DNA of 64,000 nucleotides from Alphaproteobacteria bacterium (GTDB lineage: Bacteria; Pseudomonadota; Alphaproteobacteria; Bin95): positions 224,001-288,000 of the forward strand of contig OZ219786.1 in assembly GCA_964291285.2 (NCBI GenBank), in the 5' to 3' direction. Of this stretch, positions 11,332 through 37,557 are shown piece after piece; the first letter of the stretch is position 1; every line of letters starts with the position of its first letter. Both the position numbers and the translations under genes were made by a program. Under the pieces are notes generated by a model. The model made no database searches. It worked only from the letters and a program-made list of their open reading frames with translations, and was not told the DNA's origin.

Positions 11332-11637
<306 letters not shown>

Positions 11638-11655: not shown

Positions 11656-12105
11656 ATGCGCTATTTCGACACCAGTTTCCTCGTTCCCCTCATCCTCCCC
11701 GAGGCTGCCAGCGAATCGGTCGCGGCGTTCTTCGCGGTTTTGCCGCAGGACGAACTGGCGGTGAGCCATTGGACGCGGGTCGAGTTCGCCTCGCTGCTTG
11801 CCCGTGAGGCGCGCATGGGCCATCTGAACGCCGCGAGCGTACGGAAGGCGGGGACGCGATTCGAGGCGTTGGTCGAAGAGTCCTTCATCGTCGTGCTGCC
11901 GAACCGTGACGACTTCGATCGGGCCAGGGACTGGCTCGGCCGTTTCGAGACCGGGCTGAGGGCCGGAGATGCACTGCACCTTGCCGTTGCGGGCAACCGC
12001 GGGGCGGCAGCAATCCACAGCCTGGACAAGCGCATGGTCGCGGCGGGGAAGGCGCTGGGTCTGCCGACGAGCGCCGCAATCCATCTTCCGGGTCATGGCG
12101 ATTGA
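11656..12105 (+). CDS. vapC: VapC PIN-domain toxin
   Basis: YFDTSFLV...E...LRAGDALHLA...SLDKR PIN acidic residues. Confidence 0.92.
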   Translation: MRYFDTSFLVPLILPEAASESVAAFFAVLPQDELAVSHWTRVEFASLLAREARMGHLNAASVRKAGTRFEALVEESFIVVLPNRDDFDRARDWLGRFETGLRAGDALHLAVAGNRGAAAIHSLDKRMVAAGKALGLPTSAAIHLPGHGD

Positions 12106-15551: not shown

Positions 15552-18514
15552 TCCCCCGGGGATGCAAGCGTCTGGCTGAGGTGGATTTTCCGATCGCGGC
15601 GGTGTCGCGCCATGCGGTGCGCGAGAAGTCGATCCGCCACGGCCATCCCTCGACGCTGCATCTGTGGTGGGCGCGGCGGCCTCTGGCCTCCTCGCGGGCC
15701 ATGCTCCTGGCGCTCCTGTTCCCGGACCCCTGCGATCCCGAATGTCCGGACGACTTCAAGGAAGCGGCGCGCAAGGCTCTGCCGGCGGTCGGTTGCGGGC
15801 ACGGCGAAACCGACACGGATATCCGGCGCGGCCTGCTGAAGTTCATCGCAGACTTTGCCAACTGGGACCTCAGCACAAAGCTACCTTGGCTGGAGGCGGG
15901 CCGAGCGCTCGTCAGGGCCGCCCATGGAGAAGAACCGCCCCTGGTGGTGGATCCGTTTGCCGGCGGCGGGTCAATCCCGCTGGAGGCGCTGCGGCTCGGC
16001 TGCGAGGCGTTCGCGAGCGATCTCAACCCCGTGGCCTGCCTCATCCTCAAGGCGATGCTGGAGGACATTCCGCGCCACGGCCCGGGACTGGCCGACGAGT
16101 TACGCGAGGCTGGCGCGGAAATCAGGCGGCAGGCCGAACGGGAACTGTCCGACCTGTATCCGGCCGACCCCGACGGCGCGACGCCCATCGCCTATCTGTG
16201 GGCGCGCACGGTGCGCTGCGAGGCGCCGGACTGCGGCGCCGAAATCCCGCTCATGCGTTCCTTCTGGCTGTGCCGGAAGGCGAAGCGCAAGCGCGCCTTG
16301 CGCCATGCCGTCGAACGGGTCGAGGGAGCGCCGCCGCGGGTGGCGTTCGAAGTGTTCGAACCCGTGGCCGAAAGCGAGGTACGCGGCGGCACGGTGACGC
16401 GCGCCAGGGCGACCTGCCTGTGCTGCGGCGCGGTCCTGCCGCCGGAGCGCGTGCGCGCGCAACTCGCCGCCCGGCGCGGCGGCGCGGATGTGGTTTTCGA
16501 CGAGGGGGGCAACCGGGTCGGCGGGGCGCGGATGACGGCGGTGGTGACCCTCCGGCCGGACGAAGCGGGCCGGCACTATCGTCTGCCGACGGAGGCCGAC
16601 TACGCCGCGGTGCGGGCAGCGCAGGCGCGGGTCGTCGGAATCCTGGAAGACTGGGAGCGCGGCGGCAAGCAGGGGTTGTGTCCCATACCGGATGAACCCC
16701 TGCCGCCCATAGGCACGTTGGGCTTCCGCGTCCAGCGCTACGGGATGCTCCAGTGGGGCGACCTGTTCACCGCACGGCAGAAGGCGGCGCTGGTGGAGTT
16801 GGCACGCCTTGCGTGCATTCATAACAAAGTGAATGTCAAACGAGGCCTCGCATTGGCAATATCGAAACTGTCTGAACTATCCAATTCACTCTGCACATGG
16901 GAGCCACTAGCTGAATGCCCAAGGCATGTGTTTGGACGGCAAGCACTCCCTATAGCTTGGGATTTCGCGGAGGGTGTTTCCAGCTCTGAGTCCAGTGGCA
17001 GTTATACTATTTCTGTGAGGCACGTCGCTTCGGGATCTGATTCTCTGGGTCCAGTTTCTAAGTCTATATCCCTTCAACTTGCCGACGCCAACGAGCATCC
17101 ACTCCCGGACCAGTCCGCTAGCGTCTGGTTCACCGATCCACCCTATTACGACGCGGTTCCATATGCTGATCTCTCCGACTTTTTCCTTGTCTGGCTGAAA
17201 CGCAGTCTACCCGATCACTTTCTTCTTCGGGACCCCTTCGATCCTGAAAATCTCCTCTCACCCAAGACACGCGAGGCGGTGCAGGACGAAACGAAGGAGA
17301 GCGACGGCCGCTCCAAGGACCGCGAATGGTTCGAAGACACGATGGGGAAGGCCTTCGCCGAGGGGCGGCGCGTTCTCGCCGAGGACGGCATCGGATCGGT
17401 CGTGTTCGCCCACAAGACCACCGAAGGCTGGGAAGCCCTGCTCTCCGGCATGATCCGGGGCGGCTGGACCATCACGGGTTCCTGGCCGATCGCAACGGAA
17501 ATGGGGTCTCGCCTCCGCGCCCGGGACTCCGCTGCCCTCGCTACCAGCGTCCATCTCGTCTGCCGCCCGCGCCCGGCGGATGCCCCGGTTGGCGAGTGGG
17601 CCGAGGTGCTCAAGGAACTGCCCTTGCGGGTTGCCGACTGGATGGCGCGCCTGCAGGGCGAGGGTGTGCGCGGCGCCGATCTCGTATTCGCCTGCATCGG
17701 CCCCGCCCTGGAGATCTTCAGCCGCTGCCGCACCGTCGAGACGGCGGAGGGCCAAACGGTCAGCCTGTCGACATATCTGGAGAAGGTCTGGGAAGTGGTA
17801 GGCCGCGCCGCCCTCGAACAGGTGCTCGGCACGGCGGAAGCCGCCGCCCGCAACGGCATGGCCGGCGCGCTGGAGGAAGACGCCCGCCTGTCCGCCCTCT
17901 TCCTGTGGGCTTTTCAGGGCACGAACGAATTGCGGGACAGCGGCCCGGACGATGCCGCGGCCTCCGAAGCGGACGACGCCCTCGAAGAAGAGGTCGCCAA
18001 GGCGACCGCCGGGGGATTCCGCTTGCCGTTCGATGTCGTGCGGCGCTTCTCCCAGCCCATGGGCATCGACCTCGACCGTTGGACAGGGCGGGTGATTGCC
18101 CAGGAGAAAGGCATCGTCCGCCTGCTTCCGGTTGCGGAACGCGCGAAGACGCTGCTCGGCGCCGACGGTGCCCGCAGCGTCCCCGAATGGATCGAGGCCG
18201 GCGCAAGTGCGGACGCGCAGCCAACGCTGTTCTCCGAGCTTGACCCGGTGCCGGACGCCTCGCGGCCCGAGCGCAACGGTTTCGACCCGGATTCCGACCT
18301 GCAATCGCCGGATTCGACCGTCCTGGACCGGGTTCATACGGCGATGCTGCTCCAGACGGGCGGGCATTCGAACGCCTTGCGTCGATTGATCGTTTCCGAA
18401 CAGGAGCGCGGACCGGACTTCCTGCGCCTCGCCAACGCGCTTTCCGCCCTCTACCCGCGCGGCAGCCGCGAGAAGCGGGTTCTGGACGCCATGCTGCTTG
18501 CGGCGCCGAGGTGA
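15548..18514 (+). CDS. DUF1156 amino-DNA methyltransferase
   Basis: LHLWWARRPL DUF1156 motif, DPFAGGGSI (SAM binding), TDPPY (catalytic), internal Zn-ribbon; ATGA overlap with helicase. Confidence 0.92.
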   Translation: MIPRGCKRLAEVDFPIAAVSRHAVREKSIRHGHPSTLHLWWARRPLASSRAMLLALLFPDPCDPECPDDFKEAARKALPAVGCGHGETDTDIRRGLLKFIADFANWDLSTKLPWLEAGRALVRAAHGEEPPLVVDPFAGGGSIPLEALRLGCEAFASDLNPVACLILKAMLEDIPRHGPGLADELREAGAEIRRQAERELSDLYPADPDGATPIAYLWARTVRCEAPDCGAEIPLMRSFWLCRKAKRKRALRHAVERVEGAPPRVAFEVFEPVAESEVRGGTVTRARATCLCCGAVLPPERVRAQLAARRGGADVVFDEGGNRVGGARMTAVVTLRPDEAGRHYRLPTEADYAAVRAAQARVVGILEDWERGGKQGLCPIPDEPLPPIGTLGFRVQRYGMLQWGDLFTARQKAALVELARLACIHNKVNVKRGLALAISKLSELSNSLCTWEPLAECPRHVFGRQALPIAWDFAEGVSSSESSGSYTISVRHVASGSDSLGPVSKSISLQLADANEHPLPDQSASVWFTDPPYYDAVPYADLSDFFLVWLKRSLPDHFLLRDPFDPENLLSPKTREAVQDETKESDGRSKDREWFEDTMGKAFAEGRRVLAEDGIGSVVFAHKTTEGWEALLSGMIRGGWTITGSWPIATEMGSRLRARDSAALATSVHLVCRPRPADAPVGEWAEVLKELPLRVADWMARLQGEGVRGADLVFACIGPALEIFSRCRTVETAEGQTVSLSTYLEKVWEVVGRAALEQVLGTAEAAARNGMAGALEEDARLSALFLWAFQGTNELRDSGPDDAAASEADDALEEEVAKATAGGFRLPFDVVRRFSQPMGIDLDRWTGRVIAQEKGIVRLLPVAERAKTLLGADGARSVPEWIEAGASADAQPTLFSELDPVPDASRPERNGFDPDSDLQSPDSTVLDRVHTAMLLQTGGHSNALRRLIVSEQERGPDFLRLANALSALYPRGSREKRVLDAMLLAAPR

Positions 18515-18640
18515 CGCCATGAAGCCCCGGATCGCCGAACGACAATCCCCGGGCCTGTCGGCGCCCCGAGACCGGGCCGGCGGCGGGCTTCATCCGGCGG
18601 GGACAGGAACCGGAGAACGTGATCGAAGGAGGACAGGATC

Positions 18641-18898
18641 ATGACGGAAGAAACCGAACTGCTGGACCGTATCACCGTGCGGGCCGATATCTTCGGCGGC
18701 AAGCCGATAATCCGCGACATGCGCATCGCGGTGGAGCATGTTCTGGGCAAGCTGGCGGCGGGAGACAGTGCGGAAACCATCCTCGGCGAGTATCCGTTTC
18801 TCGAGCCCGAGGATATCCGGGCCTGCCTGGTCTTCGCCCATCGTTCCCTGGCCGGCGAGCGTGTCCATGACCGCATTTCCCTGCGACAGGCTTCGTGA
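18641..18898 (+). CDS. DUF433 antitoxin
   Basis: RITVRADIFGGKPIIRDMRIAVEHVL...YPFLEPEDIRACL. Confidence 0.9.
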   Translation: MTEETELLDRITVRADIFGGKPIIRDMRIAVEHVLGKLAAGDSAETILGEYPFLEPEDIRACLVFAHRSLAGERVHDRISLRQAS

Positions 18899-19269
18899 AG
18901 TTTCTTCTCGATGTCTGCGTGGCGTCGCGCATCCTGCACCGGACCCTGATCGATCTCGGGCACGATGTGCTGTCCGCCCGCGACGGACATGCGAACGCTT
19001 CGGACGAGGCGCTGCTCGCCATCGCCTGCCGCGAAGACCGGGTGCTGGTCACCGAGGACAAGGACTTCGGCGAGCTTGTCTTTCTGCGCGGCCTGCCGCA
19101 TCCGTGTATCGTTCGTCTCGACGGGTTGACGGCCATGGAGGAAGCGGCAGTCATGCGGGACCTGATCGAGCGCCAGGGCGCTGCAATGCGCAAGGGTGCC
19201 ATTATCGTGGTCACCGGAAGGCGCGTGCGGATACGGCCGGCGGGAAATGTCGAAGGCGGCAATGACTAG
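18895..19269 (+). CDS. DUF5615 (VapC45-like) PIN toxin
   Basis: MKFLLDVC...GHDV...SDEALL...RVLVTEDKDFGEL; overlaps both neighbouring genes. Confidence 0.9.
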   Translation: MKFLLDVCVASRILHRTLIDLGHDVLSARDGHANASDEALLAIACREDRVLVTEDKDFGELVFLRGLPHPCIVRLDGLTAMEEAAVMRDLIERQGAAMRKGAIIVVTGRRVRIRPAGNVEGGND

Positions 19270-22042
19270 GCATCCCTGGCACAAGGTCGTCACGCCCCGG
19301 CAGGAGGTGCGGGAAGGTCGCTCCTTCAGCCCGGACGAATTCGCCATCGCGCTGGAACAGGTGGTCGCCGGCACGGCGCCGCCCGACTACCGCGACCCGG
19401 CGCAGTTCTTCTCGCGCACCTGCTTCACCCGTGCGCTGACAGACCATGCCGGCATGGTGCTGCGCCGCCTCGCCGGCGAAACGCAGAACACTTCGCCGGT
19501 GCTCACCCTCGTCACCCAGTTCGGCGGCGGCAAGACCCATACCTTGACGGCGCTCTACCATCTCGCCAACGCCGGCGACGGGGTTGCAAGCCTGCCGGGC
19601 GTGTCCGGTCTGCTGGCGGCGGCAGGCGTTTCAAGCCTTCCCGAAGCGCGGGTCGGGGTGTTCGTGGGCAATGCCTGGGATCCCTCCGAAGGCCGCGAGA
19701 CCCCGTGGATCGACTTGGCCCGCCAGCTTGCCGGAGACCGGGGCGTCGCCGCCCTCGGAACGGCGGCGAAGACCACGCCGCCCGGGACCGAGGCTCTCGC
19801 CCGGGTGTTCGCCGTCGCAGAGGCGCCCGTGCTGCTGCTATTCGACGAGGTCCTGAACTTCGTCAACCGCCATCGCGACCGGGCCGAGAGCTTCCACGCC
19901 TTCATCCAGAATCTGACGGTCGCCGTCACCGGGGCCGCCGGGGCGGCGGCGGTCATCAGCCTGCCGCGCAGCCAGGTGGAAATGACGGACTGGGACCGCC
20001 AATGGCAGGACCGCATCACCAAGGTGGTGCGCCGCGTCGCCCGCGACCTGATCGCCAATGACGAAGCCGAGATCGGCGACGTGGTGCGCCGGCGGCTGTT
20101 CGAGGACCTCGGCGACGAGCGGATACGCAAGCGAGTTTCGAAGACCTGCGCGGACTGGTGTTTCGAGAGAACCGCCCGCCTGCCTTCAGAATGGATGTCC
20201 GTGGACAGCGCGACCACAGAGACCAGGGCGCGCGAGTTTCTCAGGCGCCGGTTCGAGGCCTGCTATCCCTTCCACCCTTCGACGCTCTCCGTCTTCCGGA
20301 GGAAATGGAGCGCGCTTCCCCAGTTCCAGCAGACCCGCGGTACGCTTGCCATGCTGGCCCAGTGGATCTCCTGGGCGGCGCGCCAGCACTTCCGGCAGGC
20401 GCGGACGGAGCCGTTGATCACGCTCGGTTCGGCGCCGCTGCATGTGCCGGAGTTCCGCGCGGTCGTGCTCGGCCAGTTGGGCGAACAGCGGCTCGATGTG
20501 GCGATAGCCGCCGATCTCGTGGGCGACACGGCCCATGCCCGCGCGCTGGATGCCGACACGAGGGGAGCGCTGCGCGACATTCACCGCCGGGTCGGCGCGG
20601 CCATCCTGTTCGAGTCTTCCGGCGGGCAGGTGGAGAAGGTGGCGCACCTTCCCGAATTGCGCTTCGCCCTGGGTGAACCCGAAGTCGACACCACGTCCGT
20701 CGACAATGCGGCCGGGGCGCTGGAAACAGCGGGGTTCTTCATCCGCAAGATCGGTACGGACGGTTTCCGCATCCATCACCAGGCGACCCTGAAGAAGGTC
20801 GTCAGCGACCGCCGCGCCGCGCTCGACGAAGAAACGGAAATCCGGCCGGCGATCCGCAAGCTGGTGAAGGAAGAATTCGACCGGGGCGCCAGCCTGCCGG
20901 TCGTCCCCTTTCCGGAAGACGGCGCCGCTGTTCCAGACACGCCGCGCCTTGCGCTGGTCGTCGTCGATCCGGAGGCGGAATGGCAGCCCGGACAGCGGAC
21001 AGCGGAGCGGATTGCGCTATGGACAAGGCAGCGGGGCGCTTCGCCGCGGCTTTATCCCGCCTCCCTGGTCTGGTGCGTCAGGAAGCCGGGGCGCGAACTC
21101 AGGGAGCGCGCGGAGCTGTGGCTCGCCTGGCAGCGGGTCTCCCGCGAGGTGGCCGAAGGCGTGCTCGGCACGGAGTTCGACCGGGCGGATCGGGACGAGG
21201 TGCAGGCCAAGGTCAGGGACGCGGAAAACGCGGCGCGGGACGAGGTGTGGGGCGGCTACCGCTTCGTGGCGCTCGCCGACGCCAGGGCCGAGACAGGACT
21301 CAAGACAATCGATCTCGGCGCGGGGCACAGCAGCGCCAGCGAGACGCTCTGCGGCCGCGTGATCACGGCGCTCAGGACCGAAGCACTGCTCAACGAATCC
21401 GTAGGCGCGGGCTATCTCGACCGCCACTGGCCGCCGGCCTTGAGGGAAAGCGGGGCCTGGCCGCTTACCGGCCTGCGCCAGAGCTTTCTCGACGGGTCGC
21501 TGACCCGGCTCGTCGATCCGGATGCCGTCCTGCGCCGCAAGATCGTCGAATTTGTTGCGAACGGCGACTTCGGCCTCGCATCGGGCACGATGGCGGACGG
21601 CGGGTACGGACGGATCTGGCACGCCGAGCCGGTCGGGGCGGAGGAAGTTGCGTTCGAACCGGACGTGTTCCTGTTGACCAGGGCCCGCAGCGAGGAGATT
21701 CGGGCGGTGGAAGCGCCCGGGCTGCAAACGGCGCCAGACGCCGATACACCGACGCCTCCCAAACCCGGCCCCGACGCCGTGCAGGAGCTCGGGACTGAAA
21801 ACGAACCGCGCGGAAACACCGCACCGGTCCGATTGCGCCTGGCTGGAGTCGTACCGCCGGAAGTCTGGAACCGTCTCGGCACGAAGGTCGTTCCCAGGCT
21901 GCGGGCCGGCAAGGGGCTTGTCGTGGAGGTGAAGTTCGAAGCCGAGATTCCAGCAAACGCTCTCGCCGCCATGGAAGACGACCTCCGGCGAACACTGGAA
22001 GACCTGGACCTGGGGGATACAGTCCGTATCGAACGGCTATAG
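19262..22042 (+). CDS. DUF499 AAA+ ATPase
   Basis: PWHKVVTPR N-terminus, TQFGGGKTH Walker A, LLLFDE Walker B, YPFHP, FQQTRG. Confidence 0.9.
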   Translation: MTRHPWHKVVTPRQEVREGRSFSPDEFAIALEQVVAGTAPPDYRDPAQFFSRTCFTRALTDHAGMVLRRLAGETQNTSPVLTLVTQFGGGKTHTLTALYHLANAGDGVASLPGVSGLLAAAGVSSLPEARVGVFVGNAWDPSEGRETPWIDLARQLAGDRGVAALGTAAKTTPPGTEALARVFAVAEAPVLLLFDEVLNFVNRHRDRAESFHAFIQNLTVAVTGAAGAAAVISLPRSQVEMTDWDRQWQDRITKVVRRVARDLIANDEAEIGDVVRRRLFEDLGDERIRKRVSKTCADWCFERTARLPSEWMSVDSATTETRAREFLRRRFEACYPFHPSTLSVFRRKWSALPQFQQTRGTLAMLAQWISWAARQHFRQARTEPLITLGSAPLHVPEFRAVVLGQLGEQRLDVAIAADLVGDTAHARALDADTRGALRDIHRRVGAAILFESSGGQVEKVAHLPELRFALGEPEVDTTSVDNAAGALETAGFFIRKIGTDGFRIHHQATLKKVVSDRRAALDEETEIRPAIRKLVKEEFDRGASLPVVPFPEDGAAVPDTPRLALVVVDPEAEWQPGQRTAERIALWTRQRGASPRLYPASLVWCVRKPGRELRERAELWLAWQRVSREVAEGVLGTEFDRADRDEVQAKVRDAENAARDEVWGGYRFVALADARAETGLKTIDLGAGHSSASETLCGRVITALRTEALLNESVGAGYLDRHWPPALRESGAWPLTGLRQSFLDGSLTRLVDPDAVLRRKIVEFVANGDFGLASGTMADGGYGRIWHAEPVGAEEVAFEPDVFLLTRARSEEIRAVEAPGLQTAPDADTPTPPKPGPDAVQELGTENEPRGNTAPVRLRLAGVVPPEVWNRLGTKVVPRLRAGKGLVVEVKFEAEIPANALAAMEDDLRRTLEDLDLGDTVRIERL

Positions 22043-22111: not shown

Positions 22112-22882
22112 TCAACCCGCAACACCGGAAACATAGGATGGCTTTCTGGCATCCACGATTCGCATAAGGTGGTTCGCCAGCATGATGACTTCCATGGCCT
22201 CCTGCGGATCGTTCATGTGAACGTCGCGATGGGAATTCGGGTTCTTGTATGCGCCGATCGCCCCAGAGAAAAGCTGCATTCGTGCTGCCTTTTCATCCTT
22301 TCCCATATCCATGTCGGTCAGAACCCCTCCCTCGGGTTTGAATGCTTCCTGCATGAGAACGCGGCCGATACAAGTATCAGGGAGGCGGGTGGCTTCCCGG
22401 ACGAAAACTTCGACGCCCTTCATGGCTTGAAATACGGCGACATCGAAGTCACCACGGACGAATGCACACCACACCTTGTCCGCAATCCGGGGATGGAGAA
22501 CCTCTTTTGGGAGAATTCGCGCAACTCTGGAGTTTGCAAATTCCGTTTCATCTTCGTATTGATGTGCCCGTCGACTCAGGATGCGGAAACCGTGTTGACC
22601 ATTCCTGTCAGGGCTCGGGATGAGCATCCCCTGCGCCTCCAGCCATGCCCAAGCCTCACAAATGGCGACCTTTATCTCTTCTTCGTGTTCCTCGACAGAC
22701 CAAAAATCGGATACGCGGTTTCCAGTTACTGTCATGCCGTTCAAGAAATTGCCAAGATGCACCGACTTGTCGCCTTTCTTGATCCGTTGACGCAGCACAA
22801 ACAACAGCTTCGCGCCGAGTTCCTCCGGTTCCAGGGCCAGAAACTGTTCAGTATCTGGTATTCTTTCCGCGAGTTCCCGCAT
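22112..22882 (-). CDS. TIGR02391 (Ymh-like) family protein
   Basis: LHPRI...AVFQAMKGVEVFVR...LFSGAIGAYKNPNSH; AAGGAAG RBS; GC clearly lower than its flanks. Confidence 0.8.
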   Translation of the reverse strand: MRELAERIPDTEQFLALEPEELGAKLLFVLRQRIKKGDKSVHLGNFLNGMTVTGNRVSDFWSVEEHEEEIKVAICEAWAWLEAQGMLIPSPDRNGQHGFRILSRRAHQYEDETEFANSRVARILPKEVLHPRIADKVWCAFVRGDFDVAVFQAMKGVEVFVREATRLPDTCIGRVLMQEAFKPEGGVLTDMDMGKDEKAARMQLFSGAIGAYKNPNSHRDVHMNDPQEAMEVIMLANHLMRIVDARKPSYVSGVAG

Positions 22883-22960
22883 TGCTCTTCCTTTTTTCAA
22901 CGAAGAGGCGGTTGCGTTGCTCTGCCGGCTGTTCGCGCCCGAAGACTCGGGAGAGGCGCC

Positions 22961-23407
22961 GTGAGGCGCCCGCGCTCCGGGGTGAAGAAGATCGTGCGGT
23001 CCTTTTCCTGCACGGACCTGCAGCGCGACGAGATCGCCACGCGCGCGGCCGCGGCCGGCATGAACCTCTCGCCCTACGTGATCGAGTGCGGCCTGACGGT
23101 CGAACTCGACGCTGCCGAAGACGGGGCCGGCCCGTTGCCGTCGCTTGCCCTCGGCCGGGAGGAACAGCGCCGGCTGCACGACCGCGTCGCCGGGATCGCG
23201 GAACGCTGGCTGGGTCCGGCCGCGCCCGATCCGGCGGGCATGGCGGACCTGCCGGCGGTGCTCGGCGTGCTGCTCGAACGGCTCATGACCGACATGGTCG
23301 AGATGGGGCATGAAGAGCGGATGCGCCGCCTGCTGCTGGATGCCTTCGGCGAGGCCCGGGGCTCGGAGCTTGCCCGCCGGTATGCGGACAAGGCGCGCCG
23401 CCGCTGA
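22961..23407 (+). CDS. RHH protein, MobC/NikA-like
   Basis: VRSFSCTDLQRDEIATRAAAAGMNLSPYVIECGL pattern; GGAGAGG RBS before GTG. Confidence 0.6.
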   Translation: MRRPRSGVKKIVRSFSCTDLQRDEIATRAAAAGMNLSPYVIECGLTVELDAAEDGAGPLPSLALGREEQRRLHDRVAGIAERWLGPAAPDPAGMADLPAVLGVLLERLMTDMVEMGHEERMRRLLLDAFGEARGSELARRYADKARRR

Positions 23408-23618
23408 GCCTCGCACGGACATGCGAAAGGAAGGCGGCGGACGGGAAACGGGACGGCGCCCCCGGTGGCGCCCGCGCGGATTTCCCCGCAATGAAGACAG
23501 GCGCGGGACCGGGTACAAGAATAAACGCCCCGGACCGGAGTCGGGGCGACGTGCTGAACGTACAAAGGAAAAGCCCCGGAACCCGCAGGCCCCGGGGCGT
23601 AGTGGCGATGACGATGCC

Positions 23619-24032
23619 TCAGGCGGCGAGGTCCATCTCGTATGCTTCCGGGGGCGGCGCCGGCGGCCGGTTGTCGGCCCGCTCCGGCCTGGGGTCGAGG
23701 AAGTTGATTGCGCCGCGCGGGCCGACCAGGATCTCGGTGGTATAGCGGTCGTTGCCGTCGCGGTCCTTCCACTTCCGGGTGCGCAGCTTGCCGGTGACGT
23801 GCGCCTGGCGGCCCTTGGCGGCGTGCTTGCGCAGCATGGCCACCAGGCCCTCCTGGAAGACGGTGACCCGGTGCCACTCGGTCTGCTGCCTGTATTCCCC
23901 GGACTGCCTGTCCCGGTAGCCTTCGTTGGTGGCGATGCTGAAATTGGCGACTTCGCCGCCGCCGGGGAGGCTGCGGAACTCGGGGTCCGCGCCCAGATTG
24001 CCGATGAGGTCGACGCGATTGAGACCGTTCAT
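23619..24032 (-). CDS. ssb: Single-stranded DNA-binding protein (2nd copy)
   Basis: MNGLNRVDLIGNLGADPE...ATNE...TEWHRV...GKLRTRKW...YTTEI; AGGAG RBS; lacks the IPF tip. Confidence 0.92.
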   Translation of the reverse strand: MNGLNRVDLIGNLGADPEFRSLPGGGEVANFSIATNEGYRDRQSGEYRQQTEWHRVTVFQEGLVAMLRKHAAKGRQAHVTGKLRTRKWKDRDGNDRYTTEILVGPRGAINFLDPRPERADNRPPAPPPEAYEMDLAA

Positions 24033-24250: not shown

Positions 24251-24565
24251 TCAGCGGGGGAACCGGCTCCGCTCCAGCATATGGCCCCAGATTGCGGAAC
24301 TGCCCCAATATTGCACCCCCGAGTCGGCCCTCTTCTCGCCCTTGCAGATCAGGATCTCGTTGCGCGCGGGGCGCAGCTCGCGGACGGTCTCCAGCGACAG
24401 GGTCAGCGGACGGCCCTTGCCGCCCGGCAGCCGGCGGATGTCACCGTCGATGCCGGTGCGGTACCGCTCGACCACATAGTGGTCGTCCTGCAGGCCGCGT
24501 CCGAACACGTGGACCAGAAAGCTGTTCGCACCGGGGCGGAAGGCGGACGCATTGGTGGCGGGCAT
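24251..24565 (-). CDS. Small hypothetical protein, paralog of 3265-3597
   Basis: SFLVHVFGRGLQDDHYVVERYR...GDIR...RPARNEILICKG...QYWGS; AGGAG RBS. Confidence 0.7.
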   Translation of the reverse strand: MPATNASAFRPGANSFLVHVFGRGLQDDHYVVERYRTGIDGDIRRLPGGKGRPLTLSLETVRELRPARNEILICKGEKRADSGVQYWGSSAIWGHMLERSRFPR

Positions 24566-24636
24566 GTCGATAGTCTCCTGTTGGAGGAAGGGGAGCGGGA
24601 GCCGGCCGCCCGGCCACCCGCAGGGATCGCATCGAA

Positions 24637-24688
24637 AACCCTTTCCCCACCTTCTTCCGGCGTCGATACCGCCAGGGTGGGGAAAGGG
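24637..24688 (-). promoter_or_regulatory. Conserved upstream motif within a 13-bp perfect hairpin
   Basis: aaccctttccccaccttc shared with 26072-26089; ccctttccccacc (24639-24651) pairs with ggtggggaaaggg (24676-24688). Confidence 0.75.
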
Positions 24689-24700
24689 AAAACGAGAGCG

Positions 24701-25996
24701 TCAGCGGCCGGCGAATACGGCCGGGCCGGCGTCGGTGACGATCTCGACGTCGTCGAGCGAGAGCTTCGCAAAGGCGAGCGCGGCGGCTACCTCCATTGGA
24801 GTCTCCCAGGTGCCGTGATCAGAGTTGTCGGCAATCCCGATCACGGTGTATCGCGTCGGCAGGTCGGGCATGCCGCGATACGCGTAGCTGCGCTGCCGGT
24901 CGCGGCAGGGGCCGCACTCCCGCATGAGGGGCTCGGGCTCGCGGACGCCGCAGCGGGGACAGAGCCCGGCAGACTGGCGCTCGCGGGTTACCGCATGGTA
25001 GCGGCGGCGGTCGGTGGCAAGGCGCGCCTCGCGGCAGTCCGAGCAGGAATGGGACCCGGGGTCGGGAGGCCGCCTCGTGCAGTGGACACAGACGCCTCGC
25101 GCTTGGGCCTCGGCGATTCTGCGATGCCATCTCGCGCGCTCGGCGGCGCGGCGCTCGTTCCGGCAAGGCGCACATACGGTCGACCCCTCGGCGGGGGAGG
25201 TCTTGCCGCAGCGGATACAAAGCCCTTGGGAGATCCGGGCGAGGGTCCTGCGGTTGTACCGGTCCAGTTCGACGGCCAGACAGGCGTCGCAGGCCAGGCG
25301 CCCGGGCGCGGCGGGTTCCCGGCCGCAATCCACACACAATCCGACGGAGCGGCGGGCATCCCGGCGGCGTCTGGCGGCCTCCCGGTCGCGTTTGGCGGGC
25401 AGCGGCCCGCAGTCCGGGCAGCGGCGGCTGCCGGGAACCGGCGGGGCCTTGCCGCACTCGATGCAGAGCGAGCGGTCGGCCTGCCGGCGGCGGCGGTCGA
25501 TCCGGGCGCGGTAGGTCCGGCGGCGCGCGGCGAGGCAGTCGTCGCAGCACGCATTGCCTTCGGCGGGTGCCCTGTTTCCGCACTGTACGCAGAGGCCGGC
25601 CTGGCGCCGTTCCTCCTTGCGCTCCTGCAGGCGCCGGCGGCTGAGCGCGAGATGTTTCCCGTTGCAGGCGTCGCAAAGCCGTCGGCGGGGTTTCTCGGGC
25701 GTGACGCCGCATTCCTGGCAGAGGCCCCGGTTGCTTCGCAGCAGCCGGCGTTTGCGGGCGGCCTTCCGGTCGCTGGCGCGGCGGTGCTCCTGGCATTCCG
25801 GGCAGTATTTGGCCCCGTCGGGCGGGGAAACCTTGCCGCAGTTGAGGCAAAGGCCGCACGCGGCAAGCCGGTCCCGGGCGCGCGAGGCATTGGACCGCCG
25901 GGCGGGCGCGGCCCCGGTGGCGTTGCCGGAACTGGCCCTGAAGCAATGGAAGCCCGCTGCTTCGGGAGGCGGATGACGGGGGGCAGAAGCCGGCAT
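24701..25996 (-). CDS. Tandem C4 zinc-finger-like repeat protein (8 units) with conserved C-terminal domain
   Basis: Eight GLCxxCG-x10-CxxC-like units with an Arg-rich helix, ~39-43 aa period; C-terminus TVI...HGxxxxPxxVAxxLAFxKLxxxxVEIVxDA shared with 3685-4743. Confidence 0.85.
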   Translation of the reverse strand: MPASAPRHPPPEAAGFHCFRASSGNATGAAPARRSNASRARDRLAACGLCLNCGKVSPPDGAKYCPECQEHRRASDRKAARKRRLLRSNRGLCQECGVTPEKPRRRLCDACNGKHLALSRRRLQERKEERRQAGLCVQCGNRAPAEGNACCDDCLAARRRTYRARIDRRRRQADRSLCIECGKAPPVPGSRRCPDCGPLPAKRDREAARRRRDARRSVGLCVDCGREPAAPGRLACDACLAVELDRYNRRTLARISQGLCIRCGKTSPAEGSTVCAPCRNERRAAERARWHRRIAEAQARGVCVHCTRRPPDPGSHSCSDCREARLATDRRRYHAVTRERQSAGLCPRCGVREPEPLMRECGPCRDRQRSYAYRGMPDLPTRYTVIGIADNSDHGTWETPMEVAAALAFAKLSLDDVEIVTDAGPAVFAGR

Positions 25997-26060
25997 GGGC
26001 GACATCTCCTGCTGGCGGAACGGGCGCGGGGGCCGGTCGCACGGACGCCCCCCGCGAAAA

Positions 26061-26532: not shown

Positions 26533-29500
26533 TCACACCGAGATGCCGCCGCCCGGGCCGATATCGCGGGAGAGGCCCTGCTGCCGGGCCGGGTCGCGGA
26601 CGCGGAGGTGGATCTCGAGCCTCCGGCGGGCGCCGGGGTCCAGTTCGGGACGGTCCAGCATCCGCTTTGCCTCCTCGACCACCTGCCTCAGCTCCGGGAC
26701 GTTCAGGCGGGAGTTCTCGAGCCGGGGCGCGAACGCGGTCCAGGCCGCGTCGGTCTCCAGCGCCCGGGCGAGCCTTCCGCTGTCCCGCCCGATGTCCCCG
26801 CGCGCGCCCTCGATACGGTCCAGGTGGGGCGCGTAGCGCGTCCCGGCGAGGACCCGGTCCGCCCTCCCGCAGAGCCGCGCGGCTTCGTCCGCCCAGGCCC
26901 TGTAGCCCGTCCCCTCTTCCGTCACGCTCCGGCGCTGCTCCGCGGCGAGGTCCGACAGCTGCCGGCGCAGGTCCAGCGAGAAGCGGAGTTCCACGACGAG
27001 GTTCTCCACCTCCGCCTTCGCCGCCGCCGCCGCGTCATGCTGCGCGACCAGCCGCTCCAGCAGGGCGCGGGCCTCGGCGTCGAGGTCCGGCTCGGCCGCG
27101 AGCAGCCGCATGCTCCAGACGACCTCCTCATTGCCCTCGCGGTAGAACAGCGGCGTGCCGGTATCCCGCGTCACGACCTTCCGCCTCTTCCGCAGGCAGG
27201 CGGCATGGCGCCGGTCGAGGGAGACCGCGCCTTGCAGCGACTTGCGGTCCCGGGCAATGCCGTCGCGCAGCTCGGGCAGGGCGCCGGCATGGGCGAACGA
27301 GCCGTCTTCGTCCGGAAGGCCCCGCGCCTCCTCCAGAAGCCCGCCGGCCTCCTCCCGCCAGGCCTCCAGTGCAGGAAGCACGGAATAGACCGCCCTGTTC
27401 TCTCCGGCCCCGTCGATCAGGCGCTCGCGCTTTTCCACGCACTCCCGCAGCTTCGCGGCGAGCGGTTCGGCCGCGGCCTTCGCGGCGGCGATGGCGTCGC
27501 GCTCAGCGATCAGGTCCGACAGCTTTCGGCGGAGCGCCGCGTCGAGATGCGCCAACTCCAGCACCCCGGCCATGCGCAGCAGGACCCCGTCGCGGTCTTC
27601 GGCATGGAACCAGTGCGTGCCGGCCTCGTCGGCGCGCGCCTCCAGCTCCTCCCACTCGTCCAGGACGGCGAACGCGGCATCGTCGGCGTCGAGGACGGCG
27701 TGCAGTTCCGCGCCCGCCCCGGCGATCCCGTCGCGGAGCGCGGGCGCGGCGTCCAGATGGGGACGGTAGCGCTCCTCCTCCGCCGCGATCCCGTCCGCCT
27801 CCCTGCGAAGCCGGGATGCATCGTCCCGCCAGATGCGGTAGTTGCCGGCTCCCTCGCCGGCCGGATCGAACTGGATGCGCCGCACCGCGAGCGCCGTGCG
27901 CATCCCGTCATCCAGCCCGTCGAGCGTGGCGCGCGCCTTTCCCGCCGCCTCATGCGCCTCCGCCGCGCGCTCCGCCTCGGCCGCGACGCCCGCCGCCACC
28001 CCGGGGGTCCGGCCCAGTTCCGCGAGCTGCTCGACCGCGTCCGCGCATCCCTCCACATAGAACGGGATCGTGTTCTGCCGCCGCGCCTCTTCCTCCAGCG
28101 CGCGCCAGGCCGAGAGGTCCGGCCACAGCGCCTCGCGCGCCGGGATCGGCAGGGGCGCCGGCGGGGCGATCTCCTCGCCCACCGCCTCCAGCGCCGTCAT
28201 GGCCGTGCCCGCATGCGCCTCCAGCGCCTCGACAAGGTCCTCGCGGTTGTCGGTCAGCACCACCGCATTGTCCCGCGCCCGGCTGATCCCGACATAGAAT
28301 GCCGCCCGGTCCACGGGCAGGCCATGGCCGGAGTCCAGCACCACGATCGCATTGTCGCGGGTCGTGCCCTGCGCCGCATGCAGGGTCGCGCTCCAGGCAT
28401 GGTCCACATGGCGCAGCTGCGGATCGTCCCTGCGCATGGACAGGGTGCGGCCGTCCTCGATACCGATCTTTACCAGCCGGGAGCCGATGGCGAGTACCGC
28501 CGCGTCGCCGCCATTGAAAAGGCCGCGCGCCCTGTCGTTGCGCGTCCAGCGGATGCGGTCGCCCGCCTGGAGGCGGATCGGGCGCGTCTCGTAGGCCTCG
28601 TAGCGGTAGCGGACCGGCTTCGACGGGTCGATCCGGCGCGGGCGCCCGTCGGGATGCTCCAGCAGCACTCGGCCGCCCTCGGCTCCCGTCACCGTGCAGG
28701 CGTCGTCCGCCTTCACCCGGAACCGGTAGAGGTCGTTGTGGAACACCAGCACGTCGCCGGGGCGGTAGTTGGCGACATCCGCCTTCTGCGCGCGCGTCAG
28801 CCCGAGGCCGACAAGCCGGTCGATCTCCAGCACCCGCCCGTGCAGCAGGCCTTCGTCGCGCAGCCCCTCGCGCACCGCCTCGTTGATGTCCTCCCGGAGC
28901 GCATGCGTCGGCGCCATTATCGCCGTCCGGGCGCGCGCCTCCGGGTGCAGCGAGAGCCAGAGCCGGGCGGCCGCCTCGCCGAGCTCGTCCGACTCAGCCT
29001 CGTGGACATTGCCGCCGAGCCGCTCCATGGCCTCGGCAGGCTCGCCCTCCCGGATGGCCGTTACCGCCTCGCGCAGGTCGAGGTCGCGCTGGCGCAACAC
29101 CTCGTCCATGCGCGCCGTCGCCATGCCCGCCTGCTGGAGCTGCCGGAACGGCTGCCCGGCCTCCACCGAACGCAGCTGCCCGGTGTCGCCGACCAGCGCC
29201 AGGCGCGCGATGCCGATCCGCTCGGCGATCCGCATCAGCTGGCGCATCTGCGCCGAACTCACCATCGAGGCCTCGTCCACCGCCAGCACCGCGCCGCCGA
29301 ACGCAAGCCGCGCCTCGGCCAGCCGTTCCGGCCCCGCAATCCGGTCGCCGATGTCCCGGTGGCGCGCGAGGAACCACTGCAGCGTCCGCGCCGGGATGCC
29401 CGCCTCCCGCTCCAGCGCCCGCACCGCCGCCATCGACGGCGCCAGCCCCACCACCTTGCGCTCTCCGGCAAGCCGGGCCGTCTCGCGCAGCATGACCGTC

Positions 29501-30870
29501 TTGCCCGTGCCCGCATGGCCCTGCACGCCCACCACCCTGTCCTGCGTGAGTAAAATCGTGCGCACCGCCTCGCGCTGGCCCTCCGTCAGCGGACCGGCGG
29601 CCAGCTCCCTCTCCACCGCCGCCCCGTCCGCCGCCGGCGCCCCCGCCCCGGCGCCGTCGCGCATCCAGGCGATATTGCCGCGCTCCGCCCGGAGCGCCCG
29701 CTCGGTGACGAACGCCCGCTCCGCGCCGCGCAGGGACGCCGCAACCAGATGCCCGTCGCGCCGCAACTCCTCCACCGCCGTCTCGACCTCGCGCAGCGAA
29801 TACCGCCCGGGCGCCTGGCCGAGCGCATGCGCCGCGATGTCGCCGGCCGCGAACACCGAAGACCGCTCCTCAAGATGCGCCACCGCCCGCCAGACCGCTT
29901 CATGGACCGGCAGGACGGGGCGCGCCTCCGCCTGCCTCTCCACGCGCCGTTCGCGCCGCGCCCGCGCCGCCGCCTCGCGGGACGGCAGGCCCGCCTCCCT
30001 GGCGCGGCGCCGCCATATCCGCCGCAGCTCGTCCATGGCCGGCTCTGCCTTGCGACGGCGCGTGTAGAGCGCCGCCTGCTGCGCCCGGGCCGCGCTGTAG
30101 GCCCCGCCCCGTCGCCTGATGTCCTCCAGGATGTCCCGCCGACGGGTCGAGAACGCCTCGCGTACCTCCCGGTCGTAGCCCTCCAGCTCGAAACCCGGCA
30201 CCGGCCCGATCATCACCGGCACGATCCCATAGCCGAGCGCCTCCAGCCGCCGCGCCAGCTCGTTGCGGTAATGCGCCCCGATCAGCTTCTTGTGGCGGCG
30301 GATCGCCGTCGCCTCGATGCTCCGCCACTCGCCCGCCCCGTTCCGGGTCATGTTCGCCACCACGCAGTGCGTGTGCAGCTGCGGGTCCAGATTGCGGCTC
30401 GCAAGGTGCCGGAAGGTCGCCGCCGCCATGCCGTGCGCCTTCACACGCGGGCGCCTGCGGGTCTCCGGGTCCCAGCCCCGCGTCTGCAGAAGCTCCGCCT
30501 CCACCCGGTCCAGCGCCGCGCGCACCGCCTCGTCATGCGCGCGGACCACCCGCCTGTCGCCGTGCAGCAGCGCCGCCAGCGATACCGACTTCGGCGCCGA
30601 AAGCGTGATGTCCACCCCCGGACGGTGCTGGTGCTCGCCGTCGCGCAGGCGGCCCAGCCGGATATCCGTGCCCGGCACGCAGCCCTGGAGGATCGCATGG
30701 AACTTCTTCGGCGAGACATGCCGGCCCAGGCCCAGCGCCCGCGCCGCCTCGCCGTGCCAGAAGCTCGCCCGGCGGTGCTCCGGGTCGCCCTTCGCGTAGT
30801 AGCCGTCCTGCTCGAAATAGTGGACCGTCGAACTCGCCGACCCCAGGGCAATCGCTTTTGGGCCTGTCAT
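26533..30870 (-). CDS. trwC: MOBF (TrwC/TraI-like) relaxase-helicase with long helical C-terminal extension; first codons IS-derived
   Basis: YFEQDGYY catalytic Tyr, DITLSAPKSVS, HxxSRNLDPQLHTH HUH motif, QGHAGTGKT, DEASM, GDTGQL, HAAQG, YVGISRAR. Confidence 0.93.
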   Translation of the reverse strand: MTGPKAIALGSASSTVHYFEQDGYYAKGDPEHRRASFWHGEAARALGLGRHVSPKKFHAILQGCVPGTDIRLGRLRDGEHQHRPGVDITLSAPKSVSLAALLHGDRRVVRAHDEAVRAALDRVEAELLQTRGWDPETRRRPRVKAHGMAAATFRHLASRNLDPQLHTHCVVANMTRNGAGEWRSIEATAIRRHKKLIGAHYRNELARRLEALGYGIVPVMIGPVPGFELEGYDREVREAFSTRRRDILEDIRRRGGAYSAARAQQAALYTRRRKAEPAMDELRRIWRRRAREAGLPSREAAARARRERRVERQAEARPVLPVHEAVWRAVAHLEERSSVFAAGDIAAHALGQAPGRYSLREVETAVEELRRDGHLVAASLRGAERAFVTERALRAERGNIAWMRDGAGAGAPAADGAAVERELAAGPLTEGQREAVRTILLTQDRVVGVQGHAGTGKTVMLRETARLAGERKVVGLAPSMAAVRALEREAGIPARTLQWFLARHRDIGDRIAGPERLAEARLAFGGAVLAVDEASMVSSAQMRQLMRIAERIGIARLALVGDTGQLRSVEAGQPFRQLQQAGMATARMDEVLRQRDLDLREAVTAIREGEPAEAMERLGGNVHEAESDELGEAAARLWLSLHPEARARTAIMAPTHALREDINEAVREGLRDEGLLHGRVLEIDRLVGLGLTRAQKADVANYRPGDVLVFHNDLYRFRVKADDACTVTGAEGGRVLLEHPDGRPRRIDPSKPVRYRYEAYETRPIRLQAGDRIRWTRNDRARGLFNGGDAAVLAIGSRLVKIGIEDGRTLSMRRDDPQLRHVDHAWSATLHAAQGTTRDNAIVVLDSGHGLPVDRAAFYVGISRARDNAVVLTDNREDLVEALEAHAGTAMTALEAVGEEIAPPAPLPIPAREALWPDLSAWRALEEEARRQNTIPFYVEGCADAVEQLAELGRTPGVAAGVAAEAERAAEAHEAAGKARATLDGLDDGMRTALAVRRIQFDPAGEGAGNYRIWRDDASRLRREADGIAAEEERYRPHLDAAPALRDGIAGAGAELHAVLDADDAAFAVLDEWEELEARADEAGTHWFHAEDRDGVLLRMAGVLELAHLDAALRRKLSDLIAERDAIAAAKAAAEPLAAKLRECVEKRERLIDGAGENRAVYSVLPALEAWREEAGGLLEEARGLPDEDGSFAHAGALPELRDGIARDRKSLQGAVSLDRRHAACLRKRRKVVTRDTGTPLFYREGNEEVVWSMRLLAAEPDLDAEARALLERLVAQHDAAAAAKAEVENLVVELRFSLDLRRQLSDLAAEQRRSVTEEGTGYRAWADEAARLCGRADRVLAGTRYAPHLDRIEGARGDIGRDSGRLARALETDAAWTAFAPRLENSRLNVPELRQVVEEAKRMLDRPELDPGARRRLEIHLRVRDPARQQGLSRDIGPGGGISV

Positions 30871-31108
30871 GCTGCGGCCCGGATCAAGTTGAGGAGCAAG
30901 TCGTCGTTCCAGGCGGCGCGCTTGAGTTTTCCGCGCATGGCGTCTTTTGTGGGTTCGCGGCGTGCGATGTTGAGGGCGAGGCGTCGGATCAGGGCGAGGT
31001 TTTCGGGTCCGTGGTCCTTGCGGTTTCGCTGTCGGTCCTCGTTCATGGTCACGTCGAGCACCCAGTGCAGGCAGTTTTCGATGGTCCAATGGGCGCGCGC
31101 GGCGTGCT
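30844..31108 (-). mobile_element. ISAs1 remnant (3' end of transposase plus right terminal IR)
   Basis: RAHWTIENCLHWVLDVTMNED...ENLALIRRLALNI...KLKRAAWND; terminus ...gcgattgccctg at 30844-30855. Confidence 0.85.
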
Positions 31109-33047
31109 GAGGCGTGTGCGCTGTTTGGAAGTGCTTTCTGAGCAAGGCATTGCGGAGGGTCTGGATTTTTCTTACCCCGTCAGGATGGCTGATTTCCGGG
31201 GTTTTTGCGGTTTGAAGGGAAAGGTTTTGTGGATTTCCACCCCATGGCCGTGCGCGGGCTGGTTTTCGGGCGCGTCGCGTTGAGGCGCGGGACTGAGTAG
31301 AAGGTGTCGCCATCGGGCCTGCGGCCCTTGTTCCATCCACCGGCGCTGGTTGGGAGAACGTGATGGCGACAGCGGAGAAGTTAGCCTTTTCGTGGTGGTC
31401 TGTGGAGGGCCTTGCGGACCTTGAGCGTCTGCGTGTGGTGCTCGACACGCTTCCCGACGAGAAGGTTGTGGCTGCGCTTGAGGCGGGTCGAGGCCGGGGT
31501 CGCAACGACTACCCGGTGCGGGCGATGTGGCGGGCTCTGATCGCGGGGATCGTGTTCCAGCATGCCTCGATGCAGTCGCTGCTGCGTGAGCTGGGCCGCA
31601 ACCCGGCATTGCTTGAGATTTGCGGGTTCGAGGCGCTGCCCTTGCAGGGTGCGCCGGTGGTGGCGCTTTGCGCAGGGCGCGCGGTGAGGCGTCCGGCGCC
31701 GTTGCGCTCGACGGTGCCGGGCGCCTGGAACTTCTCGCGGTTCCTGGGGCGCGTGGTGCGCCTTGAGGACGAGCGCGGCCTTGTGTCGGGGATGATCGGG
31801 CGTCTGCGCGCCTCGCTGTTCGAGGAGTTGCCGGACTTCGGTCGCCATCTCGGCTACGACGGCAAGGCGGTGGCGAGCCACTCGACGGGCCGGGTTGCCG
31901 GGGCCAGGGGGCAGACCTCGGACCCCGATGCGGACTGGGGCAGGCACGAGACGGGCGGGGTGAACGCGAAGACCGGCGCGGTGTGGAAGAAGGTGAAGTC
32001 GTGGTTCGGCTACGGGCTGCACCTGATCGCCGACACGGACCACGAGGTTCCTGTGGCCTTCGAGGTGACGCGGGCGTCGGCATCGGAACCCGGGGTGCTG
32101 TCCGGGATGCTGGAGGAGTTGTTCGCCGAGGCGCCGGAGATGGCCGGGCGCTGCGCCGATTTCAGCGCCGACCGCGGTCTCGACAACGCCCGCCTGAAGG
32201 CGCGGTTGTGGGACAGGTGGCATATCCGCCCGCTGATCGACACGCGCCTGATGTGGCGGGTCGAGAAGAAGGAGCCGGGCCATGACCCGGCCCGGCCGAT
32301 CACGCGACCGCTGTTCCCCGGGCGCGCCGACGTCATCGTTCATGACGAACGCGGCCGGGTGTCCTGCGTGTGCCCGCAGACCGGCGAGGTCCGCGCCATG
32401 GCCTTCCAGGGGTTCGAGGTCGGGCGCGGCGTCTGCGGCACGCTCAAATACCGCTGCCCCGCAGCCGCCTTCGGCTTCGAGTGCAAGGGACGCCGGGCCT
32501 GCCATCGGGCGGGTGGGGTGAAGTCCGGCGAATACGGCCGCATCCTGCGCGTCGACCTCGACAGCCATGACCGGCGTATCTTCACGCCCACGCCCTGGGG
32601 CAGCCCGTCATGGCGGCGCGGATACAACCGGCGCACCGCCATGGAGCGGATCAACGCCCGCCTCGACCGCAGCTTCAACTTCGAGACCCATTACATCCGC
32701 GGACGCGCGAAGATGAAGACCCGCATCGGGCTGGCCCTGGCGGTCATGATGGCCATGGCGCTTGCACAGGCCCGCGCCGGACGCGTCGCACGCATGCGCT
32801 CCCTGGTCGGCCCGGCGCCATACCTCGATACCGGCTGACCCCTCAGCCGACTGCCGACAACGCTGACCCAACCCGCCGGACCCCGGCATACGGACAAACG
32901 CGACCGAAGGCCGGCGATGCTGCCGGGCTGGGCCGCTCAAGTTCGAAAAGCAACCGCGGCGACCGCCTCGAACGCCGGAACAAACAACATCAACACCCGG
33001 ACCCAACGTCCCATCCGACCGGAAAAACCCCACAGCGCAAATTTCTC
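31109..33047 (+). mobile_element. Insertion sequence (IS5/IS1182-like DDE), no target duplication
   Basis: Imperfect 16-bp IRs gaggcgtgtgcgctgt / acagcgcaaatttctc; the flanks are unrelated truncated genes. Confidence 0.75.
31360..32838 (+). CDS. DDE transposase (IS1182/IS5-like)
   Basis: GRNDYPVRAMW, YDGK, WFGYGLHLIAD, ADRGLD, YNRRTAMERIN. Confidence 0.9.
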   Translation: MMATAEKLAFSWWSVEGLADLERLRVVLDTLPDEKVVAALEAGRGRGRNDYPVRAMWRALIAGIVFQHASMQSLLRELGRNPALLEICGFEALPLQGAPVVALCAGRAVRRPAPLRSTVPGAWNFSRFLGRVVRLEDERGLVSGMIGRLRASLFEELPDFGRHLGYDGKAVASHSTGRVAGARGQTSDPDADWGRHETGGVNAKTGAVWKKVKSWFGYGLHLIADTDHEVPVAFEVTRASASEPGVLSGMLEELFAEAPEMAGRCADFSADRGLDNARLKARLWDRWHIRPLIDTRLMWRVEKKEPGHDPARPITRPLFPGRADVIVHDERGRVSCVCPQTGEVRAMAFQGFEVGRGVCGTLKYRCPAAAFGFECKGRRACHRAGGVKSGEYGRILRVDLDSHDRRIFTPTPWGSPSWRRGYNRRTAMERINARLDRSFNFETHYIRGRAKMKTRIGLALAVMMAMALAQARAGRVARMRSLVGPAPYLDTG

Positions 33048-34785: not shown

Positions 34786-35277
34786 TGCCTTCGTCCTTTC
34801 GTCAGGGGCTCACGCGTCTTGCGGGCCGTCTCCGGGCTCCCGGCGTCTCGTGCCGCGCTGCATTTGCCGGAATGCGCGCCTCGCCAGGGCGGCGCCGGTC
34901 CCGATGCTCCCGATGCCGGAGGGCCATGCCGCCATGCCGCAGGCCAGCGCCATCCGGATGCGCTCGCAGGGATCGTCCGGCGCCGGCCCCATGCAGTCGA
35001 CCGGCCGGAACTCGACGAGGCCGGTGTCGCTCCGCCCCGACGGAGGCAGCCGGTCGGATCGTTCGCTCATCGGGCCTCTCCCGTGAATTTCCCTCTCCGC
35101 CAGCGGTTGCGGGCGGCGCGCGCCCGCGTGAGGGCAAGATGGCGCGGGCACATCGAACAGCCGCGCACGGCCGGTTCCGCGCATCCGGTGCATTGGCTCC
35201 GGCGTCTCCGGCGCCAGTACCGGCCCCGTTCCTGCCCGGCGGTGCGCCTGTCGGGCATGGCGGCGGCGCTCCCTTCC

Positions 35278-37551: not shown

Positions 37552-37557
37552 GGCCGG

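Follow-up and report, generated by a model that had tools for sequence, protein, structure and literature searches.

Tandem zinc-finger arrays are common in eukaryotes and, to our knowledge, rare and little studied in bacteria. In this paper we describe a protein built of such putative fingers, each with four cysteines (Cys4), which is encoded twice in a 64,000-nucleotide stretch of an Alphaproteobacteria bacterium (the window; positions 224,001 to 288,000 of contig OZ219786.1, assembly GCA_964291285.2). Each gene for this array protein, copy A and copy B, lies in a block with a gene for a second, small protein and with ssb, the gene for a single-stranded DNA-binding protein (SSB). The genes of the two blocks are as follows.

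24701..26005, minus strand: array protein copy B, 434 amino acids (aa), eight Cys4 knuckle-and-helix units plus a C-terminal domain
24251..24565, minus strand: small protein copy B, 104 aa, second unnamed family
23619..24032, minus strand: ssb copy B, SSB domain (Pfam PF00436), ends ...EAYEMDLAA
3685..4743, plus strand: array protein copy A, 352 aa, five units, C-terminal domain as in copy B
3265..3597, plus strand: small protein copy A, 110 aa
5276..5722, plus strand: ssb copy A, SSB domain (Pfam PF00436), ends ...DHIPF

A preliminary description of this DNA had placed a member of a second family of about 105 aa beside each array gene and an ssb after each pair. Both statements held: the two small proteins align with 43% identity (E 2e-18), and a PF00436 gene follows downstream on the same strand in both copies. 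Its account of the two loci was correct except that it overlooked a swap, the order being small, array, ssb at copy A and array, small, ssb at copy B.

Anatomy of the array protein

The first ATG of the copy B gene is at 26005; position 25996, previously taken as the start, is codon four, which also encodes Met. The protein contains 35 Cys and 78 Arg (18%) and has a net charge of +40. Its motif, C-x2-C-x(10-11)-C-x2-C, occurs eight times in units of about 43 aa that start at residues 50/53, 96, 139, 181, 224, 263, 306 and 349, with spacings of 46, 43, 42, 43, 39, 43 and 43 aa. When the residues of copy B were shuffled 5000 times, the mean count was 0.098 units and the maximum 2, so that eight was reached in no shuffle and the eight-unit array of the preliminary description stands. 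Identity from unit to unit averages 27%, and Tandem Repeats Finder did not detect the unit period of about 129 bp as a DNA repeat across the gene; the units are old copies of one another. After the last unit comes a C-terminal domain of about 55 aa (residues ~379-431), which is beta-beta-alpha-beta in the AlphaFold2 model.

Copy A has a net charge of +39. Its alignment to copy B takes in the last units and the common C-terminal domain (32% identity, E 7e-32), which confirms the paralogy and the shared domain proposed earlier. The motif pattern detects four of its five units, and unit 1 is missed because its loop holds a tandem duplication.

3783..3859, plus strand: perfect 36-bp tandem duplication, 2.1 copies, inside unit 1 of copy A

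The duplication adds 12 residues, one Cys among them, to the knuckle loop of unit 1. Most other A-type copies of the window's genome have five regular units by the identical pattern.

An undescribed family with variable unit number

No named family was assigned to either protein, in agreement with the preliminary description. In Pfam (hmmscan, E<=1) the two arrays drew just ASFV_p27, DZR and DZR_2, all under cut-off; DZR reached 14.1 bits against a cut-off of 27.3 and DZR_2 10 bits against 27, which does not place the arrays among the double zinc ribbons. The two small proteins drew no Pfam rows at E<=1. NCBIfam gave one row, the LIC10235 family (NF047605), for copy A only and at 25.9 bits against a cut-off of 160, too low for membership. 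The window arrays had no match in PHROGs, where small protein B had one row, a family without known function (E 0.013). In PADLOC at E<=0.01 the array and the small protein matched 0 families, as did three neighbours listed below, the mini-ORF (ORF, open reading frame), the ORF after ssb and the YAcAr protein. No match to the array was found by tblastn in a plasmid collection, and full-text literature searches, judged from titles and the starts of abstracts, yielded nothing on the array family.

The array search gave 184 clusters at E<=1e-3, the best at 57% identity, and the sole source name was "hypothetical protein". Units were counted in 122 proteins, that is, 120 listed matches and the two window arrays.

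4 units: 6 proteins
5 units: 45 proteins, mostly 339 aa
6 units: 25 proteins, ~382 aa
7 units: 28 proteins, ~420 aa
8 units: 18 proteins, 434-478 aa, mostly 463-467

Array lengths are thus quantised in steps of about 42 aa, and members of the family differ in repeat number, with 4 to 8 units each, as had been suspected from the two copies in the window.

A profile of the C-terminal domain, made from 71 sequences, was compared with 1.84 billion representatives and matched 224 at E<=1e-3, 138 of them at E<=1e-10. In most of the rows listed the domain reaches or nears the end of the protein. Apparent fusions of the domain to a helicase C-terminus, a DDE transposase, an integrase, RepC or a group II intron maturase were rejected as truncated neighbours at insertion junctions. 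For the small protein there were 104 relatives, up to 92% identical; among longer fused forms we found one partial match (35% coverage) and none that was convincing. An array at E<=1e-10 is present in 8 of 401 sampled genomes of the class, the window's own included, and in 6 of 307 genera, and therefore the family is narrow and patchy. By these searches the array appears to be an undescribed family, real but narrow.

The nearest likeness is to a ribosomal protein. When a profile of 142 single units was compared with the sequences in the PDB, the majority of its 59 rows were zinc fingers of eL37 (best E 1.5e-4), and a whole-array profile gave rows for eL37, bL32 and GATA only, at E of about 0.01. 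By analogy with eL37 the array might bind RNA, for example as an RNA chaperone or as a factor directed to the ribosome or rRNA, with eL37 as the best match of the unit profile and both eL37 and bL32 listed for the whole protein. However, these scores are marginal, and the constant neighbours of the array (ssb, YAcAr, relaxase, integrases) handle DNA and not translation, and we consider an RNA-binding role very unlikely.

Predicted structure and the unit helices

An AlphaFold2 model of all 434 residues of copy B, built on a 65-row alignment, had a predicted local distance difference test score (pLDDT) of 85.5 and a predicted template modelling score (pTM) of 0.40, and its confidence was >90 across most unit junctions. 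In the model each unit opens with a short knuckle and continues, from the third Cys onward, as a helix of about 24 residues. DSSP placed helix starts at residues 69, 112, 155, 240, 279, 322 and 365, that is, at the third Cys +1, in the model without zinc. The predicted fold of the unit is treble-clef-like, with the first ligand pair on the knuckle and the second in the first turn of the helix, as the preliminary description had suggested. The small protein, modelled from a 51-row alignment (pLDDT 72), appears as a domain rich in beta strands that has a helix at its C-terminus; it had no Foldseek match at E<=1e-3 and a best VIA-align Z of 3.5, which amounts to no fold match.

In the alignment columns of the 142 units, seven helix positions had Arg or Lys in >50% of units, four had Ala, and +12 had Tyr. 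For the 39 orthologues of the 339-aa class (mean pairwise identity 71%), an entropy profile showed that the helices are among the best-kept stretches and that the variable spots are chiefly the knuckle loops and junctions. The preliminary description had proposed a constant scaffold with variable helix residues, and neither the unit columns nor the orthologues bear this out. A code of the TALE or poly-zinc-finger kind is accordingly not supported: a single basic stripe is common to the helices, which orthologues conserve, and there are no hypervariable reading positions. With this shared stripe and these conserved helices, the units resemble generic binders of the backbone, or else fingers fixed on a conserved target, and not a code that changes fast.

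The second of these would suit a sequence-specific binder of double-stranded DNA (dsDNA), a regulator of the element or an accessory of the relaxosome or of recombination that reads a conserved site, oriT or att for example, with one unit for each short step. The units differ within copy B (27% identity) yet are kept between orthologues of the 339-aa class (71%), which fits a conserved composite target, and the copy B gene stands directly after a relaxase gene, while several other loci have the array divergent from the relaxase. On the other hand, the helix positions follow a common basic and Ala pattern in place of variable reading positions, neither iterons nor strong repeats were detected in the flanking intergenic DNA, and the unit number shifts freely, from 4 to 8, between close classes. 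We think a dsDNA reader of this kind unlikely.

Linkage of array, small protein and ssb

One genome per species was scanned; 148 relatives were obtained and 80 loci kept, all from metagenome-assembled genomes. Neighbours at the 80 loci were counted by tblastn with the proteins of the window. Intergenic tblastx was flooded by GC-rich low-complexity matches in all frames, and ORF clustering was used instead.

Small gene within 600 bp, same strand: 73 of 80 loci
ssb within 5 kb downstream, same strand: 73 of 80 loci
YAcAr within 10 kb: 53 of 80 loci
Integrase: 40 of 80 loci
TrwC relaxase: 33 of 80 loci

The expected co-occurrence of array, small gene and ssb in other genomes was therefore found, at 73 of 80 loci for each neighbour; association with relaxases, which the preliminary description had also proposed to check, took the form of a TrwC relaxase at 33 of the 80. 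Several of the 13 loci that lacked one or both neighbours are at contig ends, and in three of the 13 the small gene is 2-4 kb off, across an insertion. The gene orders were as follows, the remaining loci being minor variants.

Small, array, ssb, YAcAr: 44 loci
Small, array, ssb: 9 loci
Array, small, ssb: 5 loci
Array, small, array, ssb: 2 loci

The window's genome has a further order, small, ssb, array, relaxase, in four places. There are thus three arrangements of the core genes (small, array, ssb; array, small, ssb; and small, ssb, array), and the linkage therefore survives rearrangement. In two loci (L007, L010) one small gene is flanked by two arrays, an order that may be intermediate between the two found in the window.

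The bins that hold the 80 loci are mostly labelled Alphaproteobacteria, and some Nitrospinota, Poribacteria, Acidobacteriota, Binatia and Gammaproteobacteria. Examples with labels other than Alphaproteobacteria are among L005, L013, L020, L038, L047, L065 and L067. Two of these, L047 and L065, belong to chromosomes of 4.1 and 2.9 Mb, and binning errors therefore cannot account for all of these labels.

The window's own genome (6.13 Mb) has 26 array, 29 small, 39 ssb and 27 YAcAr genes and 71 integrase matches. An ssb lies within 3 kb of 25 of the 26 arrays, and a small gene within 1 kb of 22. At least seven places in the genome carry a unit of 7.9-10.9 kb that includes the block, with a DNA identity of 97-99.7%. 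The module, of which positions 2727-6359 of the window are one copy, has been multiplied far past the usual one or two copies per genome. PMC10732058 deals with an amplified integrative element in Orientia, which is a parallel for this copy number. With 26 copies in one genome and several phylum labels, the module is a useful marker of gene flow in these communities.

Other genes and features of the two blocks

Further features accompany the core genes.

4938..5183, plus strand: mini-ORF between array and ssb of copy A, 81 aa, motif DxDxP..LLAELG(L/V)D
5907..6134, plus strand: small ORF 3' of ssb copy A; a second, near-identical repeat copy in the genome; no family
6549..7475, plus strand: YAcAr/DUF2493 SLOG-domain protein, the usual final gene of the block
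23573..23598, minus strand: terminator-like hairpin with T-run, directly 3' of ssb copy B

Relatives of the mini-ORF occur in 42 of the 80 loci; they are 45-90 aa long, share the N-terminal motif DxDxP..LLAELGLD and are strongly acidic in their short versions. Neither Pfam nor PADLOC has a family for the mini-ORF, and copy B is without one.

The SSB of copy B does not have the usual acidic ...IPF tail, which copy A and its relatives keep. The frame of ssb copy A continues to 6352, about 210 extra codons, because CAG stands in place of the stop after ...DHIPF; a near-identical repeat copy in the genome (L091) reads ...DEDHIPF and then has a proper stop. With its 36-bp duplication and its lost ssb stop, the copy A block of the window is possibly decaying.

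Mobile-element setting

Gene content of the window, which has a G+C of 71%, was determined by Pfam scans of frames supported by G+C at third codon positions.

883..2028 and 2028..3032, minus strand: two adjoining tyrosine recombinase genes, divergent from copy A
26533..31089, minus strand: TrwC-type relaxase/helicase, upstream of the copy B array on the same strand
31297..32838: inserted insertion sequence (IS) between the type IV coupling protein (T4CP) and TrwC relaxase genes
32611..34809, minus strand: T4CP (open frame), upstream of the relaxase
11910..15551: SNF2-type helicase with NOV_C domain, island between the copies
15482..18514: DUF1156 protein, same island
18623..19266: DUF433/DUF5615 pair, same island
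19196..22042: DUF499 protein, same island
22112..23518: Hypoth_Ymh protein (open frame), domain near the C-terminus

The minus-strand order at copy B is T4CP, IS, TrwC relaxase, array, small, ssb and hairpin; the copy B genes form the distal end of the T4CP-relaxase string, with no obvious leading-region position. From copy A onward the order is small, array, ssb, YAcAr, IS, a Phd/PIN pair, the helicase/DUF1156/DUF499 island and copy B. The stretch 11332-23518 is a defence-like island between the two copies and includes the Phd/PIN pair. In the single open frame at 9319-11124 a DruA (Druantia) domain is fused to DDE_Tnp_1_assoc and to a transposase domain of the DDE type. Several large frames without a Pfam match lie at 35281-42265. 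Transfer genes of a type IVB-like kind (TrbI-like, DotI/IcmL-like, T2SSE ATPase) lie in the stretch 43565-64000, together with a set of type IV pilus genes (bundlin-like, T2SSF, T2SSE), an HU gene and, at 49757-50350, a third ssb. By its content the window is a landscape of integrative conjugative elements. A tRNA scan and an Rfam search of the window gave no match, and when the flanks were scanned for inverted repeats and promoters, neither an oriT nor a promoter emerged convincingly.

Selection and environmental sequences

The ratio of nonsynonymous to synonymous substitution rates (dN/dS) between copies in the genome was 0.21-0.26 for B-type arrays and 0.32-0.85 for A-type arrays where dS>0.1; for the small and ssb genes just 2 and 4 pairs of equal length were available, too few for comparison. 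The array genes thus appear to be under constraint, which is weaker for the A type. One array copy within the window's genome carries a stop codon. DNA runs labelled sponge metagenome contained many contigs 90-99% alike across the whole stretch; the three that were compared with it came from three studies. One RNA library, labelled coral metagenome, held contigs 90-95% alike to parts of ssb, small and array, which does not by itself prove transcription.

The array might instead be an anti-defence or establishment factor in the recipient, where it would shield the incoming strand or block a host nuclease, perhaps after delivery through a type IV system. Such a role would fit its linkage to ssb, as for the anti-restriction and SOS-inhibition genes of plasmids, the fast evolution of the A-type copies (up to the ratios given above) and the presence of the type IVB-like DotI/IcmL and TrbI genes on the window's element. 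Yet PADLOC and Pfam show no likeness to a known defence or anti-defence family, and copy B closes the T4CP-relaxase string at its far end, with no clear leading region; to our minds an anti-defence function is decidedly improbable.

Interpretation

We tentatively favour the reading, which we put somewhat short of an even chance, that the array is a non-specific nucleic-acid-binding accessory, probably for single-stranded DNA (ssDNA), of the element's DNA-processing module. We infer nucleic-acid binding from the constant company of ssb, SLOG protein, relaxase and integrase, and also from the finger's likeness to eL37, the variation in unit number and the extreme basic charge. The array would be a zinc-dependent, strongly basic binder in the ssDNA-handling module of integrative conjugative or mobilisable elements. 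The second Cys pair of each knuckle unit of about 43 aa would cap the Arg/Ala helix of about 24 residues, and the units would be joined as a chain. Through their common basic stripe the units would touch the phosphate backbone, in all likelihood that of ssDNA which the element-borne SSB also covers; the unit number (4-8) would set the length of the footprint, and the C-terminal domain may dock the chain to a partner, be it the small protein, SSB or the transfer machinery.

Several observations weigh against this reading. The array model had no match among solved folds (none in Foldseek at E<=1e-3; best VIA-align Z 3.9), and its pTM of just 0.40 means that the overall path of the chain is not fixed. 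The likeness to eL37 is weak, and none of the Pfam models scored above cut-off. Linkage to ssb could come in part from shared descent of one element backbone. Evolution of the A-type copies is fast (dN/dS as high as 0.85), and stop codons occur in several of the copies from other genomes.

A bolder version makes the array an escort in conjugation. A length-tunable, zinc-stitched chain would coat the transferred strand and travel with it through the type IV system, doing the job of VirE2 with an unrelated fold; the protein of about 105 aa and the mini-ORF product would be its keepers in the donor, and its presence would go along with the spread of the element in marine bacteria that live with hosts, where a genome has dozens of copies. 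We regard this version as speculative and rather improbable. If the transferred strand is bound, the array is a new component of conjugative DNA processing, and it would also offer a compact scaffold of zinc-stabilised basic helices for study and reuse.

Comparison with known systems

VirE2, with its small chaperone VirE1, is a DNA binder of type IV transfer encoded beside a small partner gene; neither sequence nor fold likeness to the array was found. The C-terminal zinc-ribbon repeats of bacterial topoisomerase I are C4 modules in a row within a protein that holds ssDNA, as the array might be. The topoisomerase modules are four-stranded ribbons without a long basic helix and are joined to a catalytic domain, and in Pfam they showed no sequence match to the array.

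The genes ardC and psiB are accessory genes of conjugative plasmids kept beside an element-borne ssb. PMC7213743 concerns ArdC and serves here for comparison with an ssb-linked accessory gene. Neither ardC nor psiB shows homology to the array, whose position relative to the relaxase differs between copies.

Like an array unit, TraR/DksA proteins, found on plasmids and phages, have a C4 finger beside a helix, but in these proteins the finger is single. They form no tandem arrays and act on RNA polymerase. PHROG 54, "DksA-like zinc-finger", matches only one homologue of the array (P0053, E 0.0019), and TraR in the PDB was matched at E 0.75; there was no Pfam or PHROG match of TraR/DksA to the window proteins, which does not make the array a member.

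The eL37 finger shares with the units a C-x2-C-x11-C-x2-C knuckle, an "LC.RCG" start and a basic stretch after the finger. It differs in being a single finger of a ribosomal protein, whereas the array has 4-8 fingers with long helices and a private C-terminal domain and belongs to mobile elements. The eL37 Pfam model is absent from the three sub-threshold rows at E<=1, which argues for likeness and not membership; the resemblance to an RNA-binding finger seems weak but consistent.

Eukaryotic poly-zinc-finger and TALE arrays are like the family in their tandem modules, whose number varies between members. Unlike them, the array is without hypervariable reading positions and presents one shared basic stripe along its units.

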